Of a stretch of DNA of 43,824 nt, positions 3,862 through 11,384 are shown in pieces. Position 1 is the stretch's first letter. Every line of letters starts with the position of its first letter. The position numbers were made by a program, and so were the translations under genes. This stretch comes from Fimbriimonadaceae bacterium (GTDB taxonomy: Bacteria > Armatimonadota > Fimbriimonadia > Fimbriimonadales > Fimbriimonadaceae): NCBI GenBank assembly GCA_046719655.1, contig JBDNCL010000001.1, positions 1-43,824 on the forward strand. The letters run 5' to 3'. A model generated the notes under the pieces. The model ran no database searches, had not been told where the DNA came from, and was given only the letters and a program-made list of their open reading frames with translations.

Positions 3862-5327
3862 ACCACCCTCCCTTCGGCCCGAATGCGGCCCGTGAACAGT
3901 CGTTGCAGGAAGGCCCAGCTCAGCTCGTGGTGACCGAGAACCCCCTGCGGTCTCAGGAGCATCGTCAGGATCAGGGCCAGCGCGAATACGGCCCATCGGA
4001 TGTCGCTCGGCATGTAGGTGGTGCGGCCGATCAGCTCTTGGATCGGTCCGATCGATCCGATGAACGAGCTCAACGGACCCGCCATCTGGGTCGCGGAAAA
4101 GACCAACGCCCCGAGCAGCCCCAGACGGGGCAGTCCGGTCCGACGGGCCGGCGTGGCCAAAAGGGCGATCAAGATCAACGCGGCGAGTGCGGCTCCGACC
4201 CCTTTGAAGATGATGGACAGCTCGGCTCGGACGAGCAGCCAGGCGAGATAGGCGACCCCGGCGCAGCCGAGTCCCCCGAGGAAGGTCAGAGGAACGCGCA
4301 GCTTGCCGTCGATGTCGAGCCAGCCTCTCTTCTTGACCACACCGTAGGCCGCGAAAACCAGAACGCCGGCGATGATCAACGCGAAGAGATCGATGGCCGG
4401 GATCGGCTTGAGCCGCCGCAGAGACTCTTCCAGGAGCTTCAGACAGATTCCCGCAAGCGCGGCCCCCGTGATGCTGCCCGTGCCGCCGATGACGACCATC
4501 GCCACGAGCATGAAGCTCACATCCATGCGGAAGTCGTCGGGCGACACGGAGCCGTTGTAGTGGGCGAAAAGGGCGCCCGCCATTCCCGCGATCGCCGCGC
4601 CGAGGACAAAGGCGGTGACCTTGATCTTCGTCGTGTTCACGCCGGTAGCGTCGGCGGCCAGCTCGTCTTCGCGCACGGACAGGAACGCCAGTCCGTGGGA
4701 GGTTTTGAGCAGGTTGCGGGCGACGGCGAGGGTGAAGGCGAGGAGGAGAACGATGTGCCAGGTCTGGGTCATGCGCGGCACCTGGGTCAACCCGAAGTTG
4801 CCGCCCAGGTCGAGACCTCCGATCGACGTCGCGCCTCCATCCTGGTTCCTCAAGAAGACGTTGATGATCTCGCCAAAACCGAGGGTCGCGACGGCCAGGT
4901 AGTCGCCCCGCAACCGCAGGGTGGGCAACCCGATGAGAAAACCGGCGATTCCGGCCAGGACGGCCCCCAGGACGACCATCATCAAGAGCCAAAGCGGTTG
5001 GGGGATCGACTCCGGCTGGTAGTAGTTCCGGGTCGCGAAAGCGGTCCCGATGGCGCCGATCAAATAGAACGCGGCATGCCCGATCGAGAACTGCCCGGTG
5101 ATGCCGTTGATCAGGTTGAGGCTCACGGCCAAAGTCGCAAACAGGAGGCTGAGGGTGATGAGGCGGACGTCGTAGATCCCCAGCTGCGGAGCCAAGGCCG
5201 TGTGCACCACGAAGAGGAGCAACCCGAGGAGGAGCAGGCTCAGCCCGCGGACGAGCCAGAACTGCCCGGCGCGATACGGGGGTCGAGTCAGGAGCGACGT
5301 GACTTCGCGCGGTTGGACGGTCGCCAT
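3858..5327 (-). CDS. livM: Branched-chain amino acid ABC transporter permease LivM (long form, 489 aa)
   Basis: Internal start MATVQPREV at 5327, overlapping the livH stop by 1 nt. Motifs seen: [51 protein letters not shown], terminal LLRPQGVLG. There are extra TM helices inserted before the last helix. Confidence 0.9.
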
Positions 5328-6351: not shown

Positions 6352-7569
6352 TTAGGGGTTGGTTCTGGGGAACTCGAACCACTCGATCTGCTTGACCGGC
6401 ACGAAGCCGTCCCGCCGGACTTCCAGCACGAGGGCCGGCTTTTGGGCGTTGCCGTCGGGGCCGATCGTGATGCTGCCCGAAACGCCTTCGAGACCCTGGG
6501 TCGCGGCGATCGCGTCCCGAACCGCCTGCGGGGTGAGCTCGGTCGCCCGCTTCAGGGCATGGAGAACGACCATCGTCGCGTCGTATCCGAGGGCGCCCAT
6601 GGCGGTTGCCGGGGGAGCGCCGTACTTGGCCTGGAACTTCTGAACGAAGTTCTGGACGGCCGGTCGCTGCTCCGAGTTGTGGTAGTGGTTGAGGAAGAAC
6701 CCGCCGATGATCCCCTCGCCGCCAGCGTCGATCAGCTTCGTGCTGTCCCAGCCGTCGCCGCCGAGCATCTTCACGTTGAGTCCGACCGTCAAACGCTGAC
6801 GGGCGATGGGCCCGACTTCGGTGAAGTATCCGGAACAGAACAGCCCGTCGGGGTTCATCCCCTTGATGCGGGTGAGCTGGGCCATAAAGTCGACCTTGCC
6901 GCTCTCGTAGAACTCCTCGCCGACAATCGTCCCGCCGAGGGCGGTGAACACTTCCTTGAAGCGGTTGGACAGCCCGGTCGAGTAGGGAAGCCGACGGTCG
7001 GTCATGACGGCCACGCGCCGAAGACCGAGGTCCTCGTAGGCATACTTGGCGAGCGCCGCTCCCTGAAAGTCGTCGGTGAAGCAGGCCCGGAAGACGAATC
7101 TCTTGCCCTCGGTGAGGTCGGTTCGGGTGGCCCCGACCGCCACCAGGGGGACGCCCTGCGATTCGGCCACGTCGGCGGCCTGGATCGTGATGCCGCTCGC
7201 GACCTCGCCGATGACGGCGATGACCCGGTCTTCGCCGATCAGCTTCTCGGTCGCCGACTTTCCGCCCTCGGGTCGCGAGTTCGTGTCTTCGACGATCAGT
7301 TCGACCGGTCGACCGTTGATGCCGCCGGCGGCGTTGATCTCTTCCACGGCGAGCATCGCGCCGCGGTGCGAATCGACGCCCCAGGGTTGTTGATCGCCGT
7401 TCAGGCTTGCGATCATCCCGATGCGGATGGGCTGGCCGGAAGCACCGGCACCGCCCTTGGCTGCCCCGCCGCCTTCGCCTCCGGAGGGCGAGCATCCCGC
7501 CATCCAGACGGTCATCCCGAAGACCGCGGCTGCAACCGCTCCAAATGCGCGCAGTTTTTTCATGGTCAT
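6352..7569 (-). CDS. livK: ABC transporter substrate-binding lipoprotein, Leu/Ile/Val-binding (LivK/LivJ) family
   Basis: Start MTMKKLRAFGAVAAAVFGMTVWMAGC, with lipobox MAGC. Followed by IRIGMIASLNGDQQPWGVDSHRGAMLAVEEINAAGGINGRPVELIVEDT, which is typical of type-I periplasmic binding proteins of the LIV family. Confidence 0.9.
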   Translation of the reverse strand: MTMKKLRAFGAVAAAVFGMTVWMAGCSPSGGEGGGAAKGGAGASGQPIRIGMIASLNGDQQPWGVDSHRGAMLAVEEINAAGGINGRPVELIVEDTNSRPEGGKSATEKLIGEDRVIAVIGEVASGITIQAADVAESQGVPLVAVGATRTDLTEGKRFVFRACFTDDFQGAALAKYAYEDLGLRRVAVMTDRRLPYSTGLSNRFKEVFTALGGTIVGEEFYESGKVDFMAQLTRIKGMNPDGLFCSGYFTEVGPIARQRLTVGLNVKMLGGDGWDSTKLIDAGGEGIIGGFFLNHYHNSEQRPAVQNFVQKFQAKYGAPPATAMGALGYDATMVVLHALKRATELTPQAVRDAIAATQGLEGVSGSITIGPDGNAQKPALVLEVRRDGFVPVKQIEWFEFPRTNP

Positions 7570-7713
7570 GTCTCGTTTTGGCCGGCGGCCGGATCGTGTC
7601 CGACCGGCCGCGAACGCCCAGTATACAGAACAGGTCCGCCGTTCGAACTCATTCCGGGTGGGAACTTGTCCTTCTCGGCCCACGGCACCGGCATTTCTGT
7701 CTGGAGTTCATCC

Positions 7714-7719
7714 TATAAT
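7714..7719 (+). promoter_or_regulatory. Perfect -10 hexamer TATAAT upstream of the TPR gene
   Basis: TATAAT at 7714-7719 in the livK/TPR divergent region, 52 nt upstream of the TTG start at 7771. No good -35 seen. Confidence 0.4.
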
Positions 7720-7770
7720 CAGCCCGGGGCACGCGGGAAGTGGGCGCCTTCGAATCCCCGGGAGGAAAGT

Positions 7771-8778
7771 TTGTCTCAAGAACAGGCCAAGCAGTTCGTC
7801 GACCAAGCCGTTCAGTCCATCCAGGGTGGGCAGTTCGCTCAAGCCCTCGAACTGTTGAACCAGGCCGTCGAGCTTCATCCGGAAAATTCGGACGCGCATG
7901 TCCTCAAAGGCGTGGCCCTTTCTCAGTTGAAGCAGCCCGACGCGGCCGTCGAAGCCTTCCGGAAGGCGATCATGCTGAGCCCATACAACGTGAAGGCCTA
8001 CTTCAACCTCGCGGTGCACTACTACGGCGTCGGCGAGAAGCTCCGAGCCGAGGAGATGGCGCGAGAGGCGGTTCGCGTCGATCCGCGGCACGCAGGCGCG
8101 AGAGATCTCCTGAATCGAATCGAGTCCGAACGCACCCCGACCGAAGTCGGCGTCCGCACGACCGAGCCCGACCCGCAGCATCCGTCCGATCCGGCGGTGA
8201 CGCCGCCGCCCGGGACCGAGTACCCGCCCAAAGCGGAAGTCCCGCGGCCGACGGAGACCCCCTCGCCGTCCGCCCCTCCGTCGATGGGCGCGCCCCCGCT
8301 CGGAACGGGAATGGCGCCTCCCCCCGGCAGCGCCGGATCTTCGCCGGGCGGATATGTGCCTCCGGCCGGGACCGCTCCGGGCGGCTACTACCGGCCAGGC
8401 TACGAGCACCCGCAGGTGCACAGCCTGAACTTTGTCGAGAACATGGGGGCGGGTTGGACCAAGGCGGGATGGGGACTCGCGATCGTCGGCACGATCATCT
8501 TCGTGATCAGCTTCATCATGACGATCGCGATGTGGGGCACGATCATGTCCTCCGCGAACCAACCGCCCGACTTCTCAAGCATGTTCGGCGGCAACGCGCT
8601 CACGATGGTGCTGAGCCTTGTCGGCTGGCTCGTCCAGATCGCAACCCTGGTCTGGATGGTCCTCGAGTTGGCCGACCGCCGCGGCAACTGGATGTGGATG
8701 TTGCCGTTCACGCTTTGCTGCTGTTGCGGCCTCCAGGGGCCGGTCGTCATGATCTATCTCTTGAAGGGAAGAGAGTAG
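7771..8778 (+). CDS. TPR-repeat protein with a proline-rich linker and a C-terminal 3-TM domain containing a CCCC motif
   Basis: TTG start at 7771, preceded by GGAGGA (7761-7766). About three TPRs (FAQALELLNQAVELHPENSDAHVLKGVALSQLKQPDAAVEAFRKAIMLSPYNVKAYFNLAVHYY...), then a P/G/S-rich stretch, then hydrophobic helices ending in LPFTLCCCCGLQGPVVMIYLLKGRE. Confidence 0.75.
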   Translation: MSQEQAKQFVDQAVQSIQGGQFAQALELLNQAVELHPENSDAHVLKGVALSQLKQPDAAVEAFRKAIMLSPYNVKAYFNLAVHYYGVGEKLRAEEMAREAVRVDPRHAGARDLLNRIESERTPTEVGVRTTEPDPQHPSDPAVTPPPGTEYPPKAEVPRPTETPSPSAPPSMGAPPLGTGMAPPPGSAGSSPGGYVPPAGTAPGGYYRPGYEHPQVHSLNFVENMGAGWTKAGWGLAIVGTIIFVISFIMTIAMWGTIMSSANQPPDFSSMFGGNALTMVLSLVGWLVQIATLVWMVLELADRRGNWMWMLPFTLCCCCGLQGPVVMIYLLKGRE

Positions 8779-8864
8779 ATGCCGACGAACAAACAAGGGA
8801 GACTCGCCGGGAACGTTAGGGGCGGAACCGGCGTTGACCCACTCGAGGAGCCGATCGAGGGCTA

Positions 8865-9266
8865 ATGAGAATCGTCGCTTTGCTGACCATGTTGCTTTTC
8901 GGCGGAGTATTTGTCTCCGCCGAGAGCGCATGTCCGCACACCGATTGTCCAGCCTGCCACCCGTCTACCGTTCCGCCGGTTGAGTCTTGCTGCTCGACAT
9001 CGATCGACATCGAGGCCGTCTGCACAGCGGCCGACGCTGGCGCAGCGTGCCCTTGCTCGGTATCGCCCGGAACGTCGGCAGAATGGCCAGACAGTTTTGC
9101 CGTCTTGCCGGCACCGGCTCCCGAGGTTCACTTTGAGCGACTCGTCTGCCTGCCGGGTCGGCCTTCTGACGACCTCGGTTCGGCCAAACCTGCCGAGAGC
9201 GACCGGCGGCCCCGAGGGCCCCCCGGTTCGGGACCCGGCTCTCCTCGTGCTCCTCCGATGGTCTGA
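8865..9266 (+). CDS. Secreted cysteine-rich hypothetical protein (10 Cys, one CXXCH motif)
   Basis: ATG preceded by GAGGG. Signal peptide MRIVALLTMLLFGGVFVSAES, then ACPHTDCPACHPSTVPPVESCCSTSIDIEAVCTAADAGAACPCS. Third-position GC is lower than in neighbouring genes and the tail is Pro/Gly-rich, so confidence is moderate. Confidence 0.45.
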   Translation: MRIVALLTMLLFGGVFVSAESACPHTDCPACHPSTVPPVESCCSTSIDIEAVCTAADAGAACPCSVSPGTSAEWPDSFAVLPAPAPEVHFERLVCLPGRPSDDLGSAKPAESDRRPRGPPGSGPGSPRAPPMV

Positions 9267-9338
9267 CGTAACGTTCTGCCGCATCGCGGCTTAGGTTCGT
9301 CAGTTCGGCATTTTGCCCAAGACCATCGGAGTTATCCC

Positions 9339-9698
9339 ATGAAGTCCATCTTCGTAGCGATCGCCCTTGTTGCGATTCTCGCCGTCGTCGCTTTTGCGAC
9401 CCAGACCAAGAGCCCGTCGACCGTCGCGGCCGCCGCCGAAACCGCATGCGCGGCTTGTTGCGGCGACAACTGCGCCGCCTGTTGCGGCGTCAGCTGCGAC
9501 ACTTGTTGCGGCGAAAAGGCCGAAGGCGCGACCTGTTGCGCCACCGCCTGCACGGACTGCACCGAAAAGGGTTGCGCCACGTGCTGCGCCGGCAACTGTG
9601 GAGCCTGCTGTGGAGAAGCGGTGGAGGCCAACGCCAAGACCGAAGCCGAAGCCAACCACGGATGTGGCGGGTGCCCGGCAGATGCGGCCAAGGCCTGA
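9339..9698 (+). CDS. Secreted or anchored cysteine-rich repeat protein (21 Cys; C-x-x-C-C-G-x-x octapeptide repeats), metallothionein-like composition
   Basis: GGAG lies 7 nt upstream of the ATG. Signal/anchor MKSIFVAIALVAILAVVAFA with an AFA-TQ cleavage-like site. Mature part: CAACCGDN CAACCGVS CDTCCGEK ... CATCCAGN CGACCGEA ... HGCGGC. Third-position GC is high. Confidence 0.6.
   Translation: MKSIFVAIALVAILAVVAFATQTKSPSTVAAAAETACAACCGDNCAACCGVSCDTCCGEKAEGATCCATACTDCTEKGCATCCAGNCGACCGEAVEANAKTEAEANHGCGGCPADAAKA
9447..9518 (+). repeat. Three tandem 24-nt (octapeptide) coding repeats inside the Cys-rich gene
   Basis: tgcgcggcttgttgcggcgacaac / tgcgccgcctgttgcggcgtcagc / tgcgacacttgttgcggcgaaaag. 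Each unit encodes CxxCCGxx. Confidence 0.85.
9573..9620 (+). repeat. Two more tandem 24-nt octapeptide repeats (CATCCAGN, CGACCGEA)
   Basis: tgcgccacgtgctgcgccggcaac / tgtggagcctgctgtggagaagcg, in frame with 9339. Confidence 0.8.
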
Positions 9699-9722
9699 CG
9701 CCCCCTAGGCAGATCGGAACCG

Positions 9723-9749
9723 CGGCCCCACCGGCGACCGGTGGGGCCG
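9723..9749. terminator. GC-rich hairpin between convergent genes (no U-tract)
   Basis: CGGCCCCACCGG cga CCGGTGGGGCCG: a 12-bp perfect stem with a 3-nt loop, lying between the stop at 9698 (+) and the stop at 9756 (-). Confidence 0.55.
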
Positions 9750-9755
9750 TCGCAT

Positions 9756-11384
9756 TCAGGATGTCGGTGAGTCGGAATCGGGGCCGTGCGGGGGCGCCAG
9801 GTGGACGGTGTGGGTCGGGAAGGCGAACTCGACGCCGATCTCGTCGGCGATCCGCCACACGTCGAGCAGCAGCCGCTCCCGCAGAGCCAGTTCGTGCGCC
9901 CAATCGTCGGCATCGAAGAAGACCTGGATCAGCACGTTCAGGGAGCTGGGTGCGTACTCGAAGAAGCGCACGACGCTTCGCTCTTGGACGACGTTCGGGT
10001 GCTCGTCCAGAATCTGTCGGATCCGGCCGACGAACTCAGTCACCTTCTCCGGCGGCGTCGAGTACACCAACGAGACAAAGGTGCGCAGGCGCCGGGCGCG
10101 ACGACGCCCCATGTTCTCGATGTTCGAGGTGACGAGCCTCGAGTTGGGGACGGTGACGAGAGAGTCGTTGAAGGTGCGGATCCGGGTGCTTCTCATCGTG
10201 ATGTCTTCGACCACCCCCTCCACGTCGCCGACGATCACCCAGTCCCCGATCTGATAGGGCGACTCGAACAAAACGGTCAGCGAACCCAGGATGTTCTCCA
10301 CGCTGTCTTTGGCCGCCAGCGCGAGGATGGCGCCGCCGATCCCGAGACCGGCGACCAGTCCCACCACGTTGACCCCGAGAGCCGCCAGCATCCAGATCAC
10401 CACGCCGACGCCGAGGAAAACCCGGCCCAGGTTGCGGGCGATCGGAAGGATGAGGCGTTCGCTCCGGTCGGAGACTTGCCCGGCCCGCCGCCCCAAACCG
10501 GCGATCGCCAACTCCCACACGGCAAAGAGGAGCCAAAGCCACGCCGCCGCGTACAGGAGAATGAGGGCGATTCGCAGAGGGCCGCTGACCGAAACGGGCA
10601 GGCCGAGGAAGACCAGCCCCCTCGAGAGCAGAAAGACGTTGACCACGAAGCTGAGGGCCCGAAGGGCCGAACGCACCTTCTTGCCTTCGACAACTCTCTC
10701 GAGGGCCCTCAGACGGGTCCGCATCAACAGTCCGGTGATGAGTCGAACCAGCAACCCGGCCAGCCACGCGAGCGCGACGAGTCCGGCGAGACTCAGCCAC
10801 TGCCACTGCTCCAAGCCTCCGACCGAGTTGTGCAGCGACGTCGGGAACTGGCCGCGGAGCCACTCGTCGGGAGGCAGGGCCGTGGCGGGGTTGTCCGCCA
10901 ACTCGGGCACGACGGGGCGGTCCCGCACCAGGTTCCAGATCTCGTCCACTTCGGCCAGGGTATCGGTCGTGAATCGCCAGGCACCCGTCGGATCGCGGGC
11001 GATGACGATTCGGCCGACCTCGTTTCCCAAAGGGTCGCGGTAGATGTGGAACACGAACGGCTCGCCGTCGCGATCGTTCGGGATCCGGTCCAGCCTCACA
11101 TAGACCGTTCGGTTGAGAATGGCCCAAAGACGGTAGGCCAGTTGCGATCCGCGCTCTCCCCTCACGACCGCGGGGTAGGTGGACAGGTCGAGCGTGGTCA
11201 CGGCGCGGCTGAGGTCGCTGCCGTTCATCGCCTCCAGGAAGGTCTGCATCGTGGCCCGCGGCGACCTCAGGTCGTTCGGCACCCCGACGGCCGCCGTTCC
11301 CGGCGCGTCGCCGGTCGGACCGGGCGTCTGGCTGAAGGCTCCCAAGGAAACGAGGCAGAGGACGAGCGCAAGAGTGCCGCGCAT
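9756..11384 (-). CDS. Mechanosensitive ion channel (MscS) family protein with an N-terminal periplasmic domain
   Basis: Signal peptide MRGTLALVLCLVSLGAFSQ and several TM helices. MscS core: AAKDSVENILGSLTVLFESPYQIGDWVIVGDVEGVVEDITMRSTRIRTFNDSLVTVPNSRL. Confidence 0.9.
   Translation of the reverse strand: MRGTLALVLCLVSLGAFSQTPGPTGDAPGTAAVGVPNDLRSPRATMQTFLEAMNGSDLSRAVTTLDLSTYPAVVRGERGSQLAYRLWAILNRTVYVRLDRIPNDRDGEPFVFHIYRDPLGNEVGRIVIARDPTGAWRFTTDTLAEVDEIWNLVRDRPVVPELADNPATALPPDEWLRGQFPTSLHNSVGGLEQWQWLSLAGLVALAWLAGLLVRLITGLLMRTRLRALERVVEGKKVRSALRALSFVVNVFLLSRGLVFLGLPVSVSGPLRIALILLYAAAWLWLLFAVWELAIAGLGRRAGQVSDRSERLILPIARNLGRVFLGVGVVIWMLAALGVNVVGLVAGLGIGGAILALAAKDSVENILGSLTVLFESPYQIGDWVIVGDVEGVVEDITMRSTRIRTFNDSLVTVPNSRLVTSNIENMGRRRARRLRTFVSLVYSTPPEKVTEFVGRIRQILDEHPNVVQERSVVRFFEYAPSSLNVLIQVFFDADDWAHELALRERLLLDVWRIADEIGVEFAFPTHTVHLAPPHGPDSDSPTS

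Follow-up and report, generated by a model that had tools for sequence, protein, structure and literature searches.

What does a bacterium do with a protein that looks exported, in which one residue in five is a cysteine and the cysteines recur in units of eight residues? This question is raised by an open reading frame (ORF) at positions 9339 to 9698 of a 43,824-nucleotide stretch of DNA (the window) from a Fimbriimonadaceae bacterium (GenBank assembly GCA_046719655.1, contig JBDNCL010000001.1, positions 1 to 43,824 of the forward strand). An initial reading of the bare letters, termed here the sequence-only reading, had singled out the ORF for its cysteine repeats and likened its composition to that of a metallothionein. 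We found that the ORF is a real gene under purifying selection and that exported-looking proteins of its kind, built on CxxCCG(D)x repeats, form an undescribed family that is rare and sparsely distributed. In addition, the Shine-Dalgarno (SD) sequence of the gene is sequestered in a conserved hairpin whose other arm is the end of an upstream ORF that gene finders do not call. As for function, we favor a periplasmic metallothionein-like thiolate protein, an inferred reading to which we give a probability of roughly 0.4.

The repeat ORF is a gene under purifying selection

A search of 5.8 billion proteins returned a single homologue, P0001, and when 1.84 billion cluster representatives were searched exhaustively with HMMER, again only this protein was returned. 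P0001 has 119 amino acids, is 81% identical to the window protein, and is encoded on a 1.5-kb contig (L001) that is syntenic with the window. At both loci, the repeat gene is convergent with an MscS-like gene. The two coding sequences (CDSs) differ at 66 nucleotides, 42 of which fall at codon position 3, and no indel separates them. The ratio of nonsynonymous to synonymous changes (dN/dS) is 0.15 with a dS of 0.70, all 21 cysteines are retained (21/21), and the SD sequence, the ATG, and the stop codon are all conserved in L001. Thus, the good SD sequence and ATG noted earlier (a GGAG 7 nt ahead of the start) do belong to a gene. Window positions 7339 to 9776 are also identical to a contig of assembly GCA_046719155.1.

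The region has a GC content of 65% and contains several overlapping ORFs, as would be the case if ORF 9339-9698 were not a gene at all but had arisen incidentally from GC-rich sequence or from a gene on the antisense strand. In keeping with that explanation, the antisense frame whose wobble positions coincide with those of the sense frame is also open, with a dN/dS of 0.22. Its openness is automatic, since the protein contains no leucine and no serine encoded by TCA, the codons that give antisense stops. Because the dN/dS values of the two strands are nearly equal, we chose the sense frame on other grounds: its conserved SD sequence, ATG, and stop codon, the signal peptide, the conserved hairpin after the stop codon, independent gene calls in two assemblies, and relatives of the same build, about 20 of which occur independently in genomes of differing GC content. 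The sense frame also has the lowest dN/dS, and the start of the antisense ORF would fall within the convergent MscS gene. We rejected the spurious-ORF explanation, which retains next to no probability.

The features of the locus are collected in Table 1. The GC-rich hairpin that follows the repeat gene is likely a bidirectional terminator without a U-tract, and it was not flagged in a scan for U-tract terminators. No sigma-70 promoters or U-tract terminators were found in the scan of positions 8500 to 10000.

Table 1. Features of the repeat gene and its surroundings, in window coordinates
Feature	Position	Strand	Remarks
Uncalled upstream ORF (ORF1), 133 amino acids	8865-9266	+	Signal-peptide-like N terminus MRIVALLTMLLFGGVFVSAES, 9 Cys, Pro-rich tail
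Leader hairpin, three-way junction	9253-9331	+	Perfect 12-bp inverted repeat
SD sequence GGAG	9328-9331	+	7 nt 5′ of the ATG; paired in the hairpin; conserved in L001
CDS of exported cysteine repeat protein, 119 amino acids	9339-9698	+	ATG to TGA; gene calls in two independent assemblies
Predicted signal peptide, residues 1-20 (MKSIFVAIALVAILAVVAFA)	9339-9398	+	Predicted cleavage AFA/TQ, read by eye
Octads 1-3, CAACCGDN, CAACCGVS, CDTCCGEK	9447-9518	+	24-nt, 8-residue units
Irregular cysteine segment AEGATCCATACTDCTEKG	9519-9572	+	CC-x3-C-x2-C; every Cys conserved in P0001
Octads 4-5, CATCCAGN, CGACCGEA	9573-9620	+	24-nt, 8-residue units
C-terminal CGGC (CxxC), residues 108-111	9660-9671	+	Conserved in P0001
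Perfect 12-bp GC-rich hairpin, CGGCCCCACCGG / CCGGTGGGGCCG	9723-9749		In the gap that separates the repeat gene from the convergent MscS-like gene; stem conserved in L001

Signal peptide and cysteine octads

The predicted protein begins with MK and an 18-residue hydrophobic stretch, followed by A18-F19-A20 and T21. Read by eye, this agrees with the AxA-type signal peptide of the sequence-only reading, and residues 3 to 22 are helical in the AlphaFold2 (AF2) model. Export of the protein is predicted from this signal peptide as judged by eye. The 21 cysteines make up 17.6% of the residues in the precursor and 21% of those in the 99-residue mature part, close to the 22% noted earlier. The mature part lacks Phe, Trp, and Tyr, has a pI near 4.3, and contains one His that is not conserved in P0001, so that the likeness of its composition to metallothioneins holds.

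The general unit of the window protein is C-x-x-C-C-(G/A)-x-x, present as five octads. The sequence-only reading had placed these exactly. One of them has CCA in place of CCG; P0001 shows CCG at that place. Tandem Repeats Finder reported positions 9447 to 9514 with a period of 24, 2.8 copies, 81% matches, and a score of 94, and a looser repeat search gave six in-register units with 60 to 73% identity. We then shuffled the mature sequence 200,000 times for comparison. Five or more CxxCC motifs arose in 0.06% of the shuffles, three or more in-register pairs in 0.0005%, and four or more CxxCCG motifs in none. Because shuffling almost never reproduces these counts, the repeat pattern goes beyond composition. 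Elsewhere in the window, none of the open frames with 60 or more codons is above 11% Cys.

Tandem 24-nt units might be expected to expand or contract by slippage, as had been suggested from the sequence. This was not supported for close relatives. The array shows no indel between the window and the 81% identical P0001 despite a dS of 0.7, and its units are only 60 to 81% alike at the DNA level, which counts against rapid slippage. Unit number varies only between distant lineages (one to seven strict CxxCCG units across the family). The sole indel seen between moderately related genes is 27 nt rather than 24, a 9-residue insertion in the comparison of L243 with L077.

An undescribed family of putatively exported CxxCCG proteins

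Searches of Pfam, NCBIfam, and PDB sequences gave no match for the window protein, and literature searches returned no description of the motif, of the family, or of exported bacterial metallothioneins. With the Pfam threshold relaxed to an E value of 10, only a weak DUF2613 match appeared, and it lay on the signal peptide. These results bear out the earlier statement that no described family has this repeat. The sequence-only reading had also reasoned that a lack of homologues in relatives would leave an orphan ORF. In addition to the close homologue P0001, we found about 20 distant relatives.

Since HMMER penalizes this composition, the relatives were sought by scanning DNA collections with back-translated repeat patterns. 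The scan gave 240 hits, most of which were low-complexity sequence in the wrong frame and were discarded. The minority were small, well-formed genes whose products start with a signal peptide and continue with CxxCCG units. A Planctomycetaceae metagenome-assembled genome (MAG) encodes a 102-residue protein (L077) with 22 Cys and five CxxCCGDx units, and this gene has its own SD sequence and terminator. A Hydrogenedentales MAG encodes a 167-residue protein (L052) with 35 Cys after the signal peptide and an exact EGKCG motif. The protein of a Verrucomicrobiota MAG (L041) is only 48 residues long and consists of a lipobox (LVSC) and three units, while L187, L178, L227, L168, and L132 are proteins of 73 to 130 residues from metagenomes. 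L187, the nearest of the distant homologues, is 42% identical to the window protein over 95 residues (pairwise E = 6e-12), and L077 matches it with a pairwise E of 2e-8.

A family profile built from the sequences of seven relatives, along the lines of the profile search that had been proposed, recovered P0001 and 12 more proteins (P0002 to P0013) of 77 to 178 residues. All 12 have a hydrophobic N terminus and CxxCCG(D)x repeats, frequently with the core CCGDNCAxCCG. None contains a Pfam domain; three are named “hypothetical protein” and the others are nameless. Six relatives were compared with Pfam and NCBIfam, and none but L086 gave a match. The N-terminal hydrophobic segments of the relatives carry AxA-like sites or a lipobox.

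We define the family by a signal peptide or lipobox, at least two CxxCCG units, a length of about 50 to 180 residues, and, often, a CCGDNCAxCCG core. The window protein, P0001, L187, L077, L052, L041, L178, L227, L168, L132, and P0002 to P0013 are placed in it, with only one strict CxxCCG unit each in L227 and L132. The family occurs mostly in planctomycete-like bacteria, and its sources are MAGs of Planctomycetota, Verrucomicrobiota, and Hydrogenedentota, as well as metagenomes. Homology within it is significant only in pairwise or profile comparisons, and some members may be convergent. The number of cysteines after residue 20 is odd in 13 of 20 members, which argues against a fold that is fully disulfide bonded within the molecule. 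Cysteine parity as such is indifferent.

The match in L086 (1-1152, + strand) identifies an outer-membrane beta-barrel protein of the BBP7 family (PF07585, E = 3e-87), into which a PCCGDCCDDCCGDCCDDCCGESC segment is inserted, so that the CCGD module is found as an insert in an envelope protein as well.

An uncalled upstream ORF and a hairpin that sequesters the SD sequence

Two elements of the locus are absent from the sequence-only reading. The first is ORF1, which lies in a 560-nt gap left by the gene finders ahead of the repeat gene. A GAGGG motif stands 4 nt 5′ of its ATG. The cysteines of its product occur in the motifs CPHTDCPAC, ESCC, and CPC, and the proline-rich tail ends in PRAPPMV before the stop. 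L001 covers only the last 35 codons of ORF1, where the frame is open and ends at the same stop. Over these codons, the dN/dS between the window and L001 is 0.25, and the differences at the three codon positions number 4, 7, and 16.

Gene finders leave 260 to 1000 nt vacant 5′ of the family genes. Same-strand upstream ORFs of 117 to 150 amino acids, with a hydrophobic N terminus and cysteine motifs, are present in L077, L243, L246, L247, and L252. Those of L077 and L243 are 51% identical, with a dN/dS of 0.25 over 130 codons. By these two dN/dS values, ORF1 is coding; it is probably the first cistron and the partner of the repeat gene. Pfam gave no match for the upstream ORFs of family genes. 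Short DNA repeats (D2/D3) hinted that ORF1 might be a paralogue of the repeat protein, an idea that was dropped on a BLASTP E value of 0.85. The idea that the upstream ORFs form one family was also dropped, as tblastn joined only L077 with L243/L244 and the window with L001. Since they are not detectably homologous across lineages, we call them positional analogues. Within ORF1, positions 8994 to 9013 are an exact tandem duplication, TCGACATCGA TCGACATCGA, that is also palindromic.

The second element is the leader hairpin. Its 5′ arm, CTCCGATGGTCTGACG (9253-9268), comprises the last codons of ORF1 and the stop (9264-9266), and its 3′ arm, AGACCATCGGAG (9320-9331), comprises the SD sequence of the repeat gene. 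The arms form a perfect 12-bp stem and an inner extension. The fold energy is −43.4 kcal/mol (z = −3.7) in the window and −46.5 kcal/mol (z = −4.2) in L001. Between these two loci, the arms are 94 to 97% identical, whereas the identity of the loop is 63% and that of the CDS is 82%. The duplex of the window arms, at −23.3 kcal/mol, is stronger than those of all 937 control windows.

The stop region also pairs with the SD sequence in four other lineages, with other arm sequences: in L246 (CUCCUGUCG / CGAUAGGAG), in L247, and in L077 and L243 (GAUUCUCC(C) / (G)GGAGAAUC). The pairings of the window, L001, L246, and L247 rank above all of their 433 to 945 control windows, while L077 ranks 8 of 683 and L243 ranks 15 of 936 (top 1 to 2%). 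Rfam gave no match in the whole window, and a permissive E value applied to positions 8800 to 9800 gave only sub-threshold noise.

Judged from this structure, translational coupling of ORF1 and the repeat gene would be the simplest reading. Hairpins of this type are known from ribosomal-protein operons and RNA phages, where the downstream SD sequence likewise pairs with the end of the upstream cistron. Unlike those classic examples, the hairpin described here is not a sequence family, it joins two exported cysteine-rich proteins, and its upstream cistron is unannotated.

Proposed function of the repeat protein

In the reading that we favor, ORF1 and the repeat gene would constitute a two-gene cassette for exported cysteine-rich proteins, the first of them rich in Cys and Pro. 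The second protein would be exported by Sec as a chain of about 99 residues, almost wholly made of C-x-x-C-C-G-x-x modules, with 21 thiols and a terminal CxxC. It would act as a thiolate sponge in the periplasm or on the outward-facing side of the membrane, folding around soft metals, for example, Cu(I), Cd, Zn, or thiophiles of the Hg/As type. Each CxxCC triad would supply three ligands, an arrangement that would suit three-coordinate soft metals. With its SD sequence locked in the hairpin, expression of the repeat gene would be gated at translation. Ribosomes that terminate on ORF1 would unwind the arm and free the SD sequence, and both proteins would be made together.

Metal binding is suggested by the composition, the CxxCC triads, the lack of a predicted stable fold, and a single neighboring gene. 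AF2 gave a confidence score (pLDDT) of 55.7 from the single sequence and 53.4 with a 14-sequence alignment; there is no stable fold, and the models are unusable. Such low values are expected for a metal-thiolate protein in its apo form. The neighboring gene is at L246. There, the family gene (P0013) is followed after 63 nt, on the same strand, by a gene (2043-2639, +) for an exported protein with two YHS/TRASH domains, which contain the motifs C…YPMCCASC and C…YVCCSGC. The YHS match has an E value of 2.3e-12 and a score of 47 bits against a cutoff of 30.3 bits. A second hint comes from L187, where the family gene follows two-component regulatory genes.

The operational description of a metallothionein (low mass, high Cys, no aromatic residues) fits the mature protein, with its 99 residues, 21% Cys, and no Phe, Trp, or Tyr. 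Like metallothioneins as a class, including the repeat-built eukaryotic ones, it is small, has about 20% Cys in CxxC and CC motifs, is built from modular repeats, and has no predicted fold when metal free. Bacterial metallothioneins are cytoplasmic. BmtA and SmtA are described as cytoplasmic proteins without a signal peptide and with a zinc-finger-like site of Cys plus His, whereas the window protein has a signal peptide and no conserved His. It has no match to PF02069, the Pfam family of these proteins, and nothing relevant was found in NCBIfam. Furthermore, the octad CxxCCGxx is not a described metallothionein motif, and the gene stands behind a putatively coupled partner ORF.

Two other cysteine-rich types were compared. 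Csp1 of methanotrophs is exported, and its many Cys thiolates hold metal outside the cytoplasm. Csp1 is a Tat-exported four-helix bundle lined with Cys, whereas the window protein has no RR motif and has a Gly in every unit. The comparison gave no Pfam or PDB sequence match and no confident bundle (AF2 pLDDT of 53 to 56). The CCG domain of the HdrB type (PF02754; CXnCCGXmCXXC, a cytoplasmic Fe-S domain) had no Pfam match in the window protein, which looks exported.

The sources of the family and the porin insert bring in a different possibility, namely, that the protein is a structural component of the envelope, cross-linked by intermolecular disulfides after export. OmcA of Chlamydia is such a protein and is likewise small, exported, cysteine rich, and from the Planctomycetes-Verrucomicrobia-Chlamydiae (PVC) superphylum. 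Family members are largely from PVC bacteria (e.g., the Planctomycetaceae MAG with L077 and the Verrucomicrobiota MAG with L041), and the L041 protein is a predicted lipoprotein with a lipobox, as OmcA is. The insert in the BBP7 beta-barrel of L086, CCGDCCDDCCGDCCDDCCG, places the module in the envelope, the odd cysteine counts would fit intermolecular bonds, and the oxidizing periplasm favors disulfides. However, the window protein has no lipobox, and OmcA is not known to have regular repeats. Pfam revealed no similarity to the chlamydial OmcA and OmcB families. Vicinal Cys-Cys pairs are poor disulfide partners, and regular CxxCC triads with no hydrophobic core and no aromatic residues are closer to metal-thiolate proteins than to structural ones. 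The YHS neighbor in L246 also suggests metals. We consider an envelope role unlikely, though it is the main rival to the favored reading.

Could the cysteines instead be modified? Bufferin-type precursors have Sec signal peptides and many Cys, are sometimes long and repetitive, and bind copper, and some of their genes stand alone (PMC11626156; PMC12452194). By analogy, the repeat protein might be a bufferin- or oxazolin-like precursor with cysteines turned into, e.g., thiooxazoles by a maturase (an MNIO/DUF2063 pair or some other) whose genes lie elsewhere in the genome. Bufferins and oxazolins, which are Sec-exported RiPP metallophores modified by MNIO enzymes (DUF2282, BUF_6/12Cys, Buf_EGKCG), resemble it in their Sec signal peptide, their Cys-rich and sometimes repetitive core, their periplasmic location, and their proposed role in metal buffering. 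MNIO enzymes are present in Planctomycetes, Verrucomicrobia, and Chlamydia, and L052 contains the exact EGKCG motif. Against this, genes for DUF692/MNIO, DUF2063, DoxX, or radical-SAM proteins were found neither among the window ORFs that we scanned nor in the sequence flanking about 10 related loci. The window protein has no DUF2282 match, no EGKCG, and no 17-residue repeat; the bufferin repeat is a 17-residue unit with two EGKCG motifs, whereas the unit here is the 8-residue CxxCCGxx. The “adjamnio-IV” group does have CxxCC but lacks signal peptides and lies beside an MNIO gene, unlike the window protein. A modified precursor is, in our view, improbable.

Finally, dense thiols and CxxC motifs, which are typical of redox proteins, would also serve thiol/redox or sulfur handling in the periplasm, whether as a sacrificial thiol buffer or as a carrier of polysulfide or persulfide, without metal binding. 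The lack of nearby metal genes is in line with this. On the other side, Pfam found no thioredoxin-like or rhodanese-like domain, no Dsb or sulfur-metabolism genes were seen as neighbors in the window or beside the relatives, and low-complexity repeats without a fold are atypical of redox enzymes. We hold out little prospect for such a role.

Several observations weigh against the metallothionein-like, coupled cassette that we favor. No metal-resistance, metal-sensor, or metal-efflux genes were seen among the ORFs scanned in the 43.8-kb window, and no neighboring gene is common to the roughly 10 related loci. The YHS link to metals comes from one locus, L246, and a two-component link seen at L187 is generic. 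In an oxidizing periplasm, free thiolates would need protection, and known periplasmic metal proteins use mostly Met and His. The 18-residue hydrophobic region of the protein could be an uncleaved membrane anchor. For the cassette, ORF1 is absent from the gene-finder calls, has a GC content at third codon positions of only 0.61 in its second half, and yielded no database homologue in the homologue search, although an ORF that gene callers always pass over would be expected to have none. Across lineages, the upstream ORFs show no detectable homology, save for the pairs L077/L243 and window/L001. Pairing of the stop region with the SD sequence is lacking in L252, and the proposed coupling is read from structure.

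Neighboring genes and other cysteine-rich proteins

The window is ordinary chromosome. It carries genes for a Liv-type ABC transporter, a TPR/membrane protein, MscS, TetR, a GH2 glycosidase, and a GGDEF protein, as well as miaA-hfq-dapF and aromatic amino acid genes. The only signs of a planctomycete-like origin are the relatives and an extracytoplasmic function (ECF) sigma factor of the PF07638 type. In an all-against-all comparison of neighbors of the related loci, the only genes in common were generic two-component systems and TPR proteins. At L187, a histidine kinase and a sigma-54 NtrC-type regulator (310-2708, +) lie directly 5′ of the family gene in the same orientation. A sigma-54 promoter ahead of the L187 gene or the window gene was considered and dropped, as no GG-N10-GC match was found by eye.

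The cassette is adjoined on its 5′ side, on the same strand, by a gene (7771-8778, +) whose TPR product combines a long linker rich in Pro and Gly with membrane segments at the C terminus, the last of which contains a CCCC run (…FTLCCCCGLQG…).

Other repetitive cysteine proteins also came to light. Exported proteins of about 100 residues ending in CKACCGPNCxxCCGK form a separate family, with a member in a Methanosarcinales MAG (L040, 6994-7338, +) and tandem paralogues in L098 (ORFs 1477-1803 and 4087-4392, both on the − strand). The 264-residue product of L228 (530-1324, −) has a signal peptide and long (S)C(H/S)GCCGG repeats, and its C-terminal domain, rich in beta structure, is presumably similar to the planctomycete TIGR03000 domain.

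Implications

Taken together, these results raise the tentative and still doubtful prospect of a first Sec-exported, unmodified family of bacterial metallothionein type, with CxxCC triads and a hidden two-gene cassette coupled through a hairpin between stop and SD sequence. Of its new elements, the uncalled partner ORF and the putative coupling hairpin lend themselves best to testing, and the conserved pairing of stop region and SD sequence offers a testable case for obligatory cotranslation of two exported proteins. The family also illustrates how composition can defeat standard homology statistics, as one relative was obtained from 5.8 plus 1.8 billion sequences. With its likely partner gene also uncalled by gene finders, the family is an example of the unrecorded small-protein content of environmental bacteria.

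A plain Sec-exported protein with 21% Cys would differ from periplasmic solutions that use Met/His ligands or modified Cys, as in bufferins, and would raise the question of how exported thiols stay reduced or become loaded with metal. If the prospect of such a family and cassette holds true, PVC-type bacteria would have a periplasmic metal-buffering (or envelope-thiol) system that annotation pipelines and profile databases have missed.

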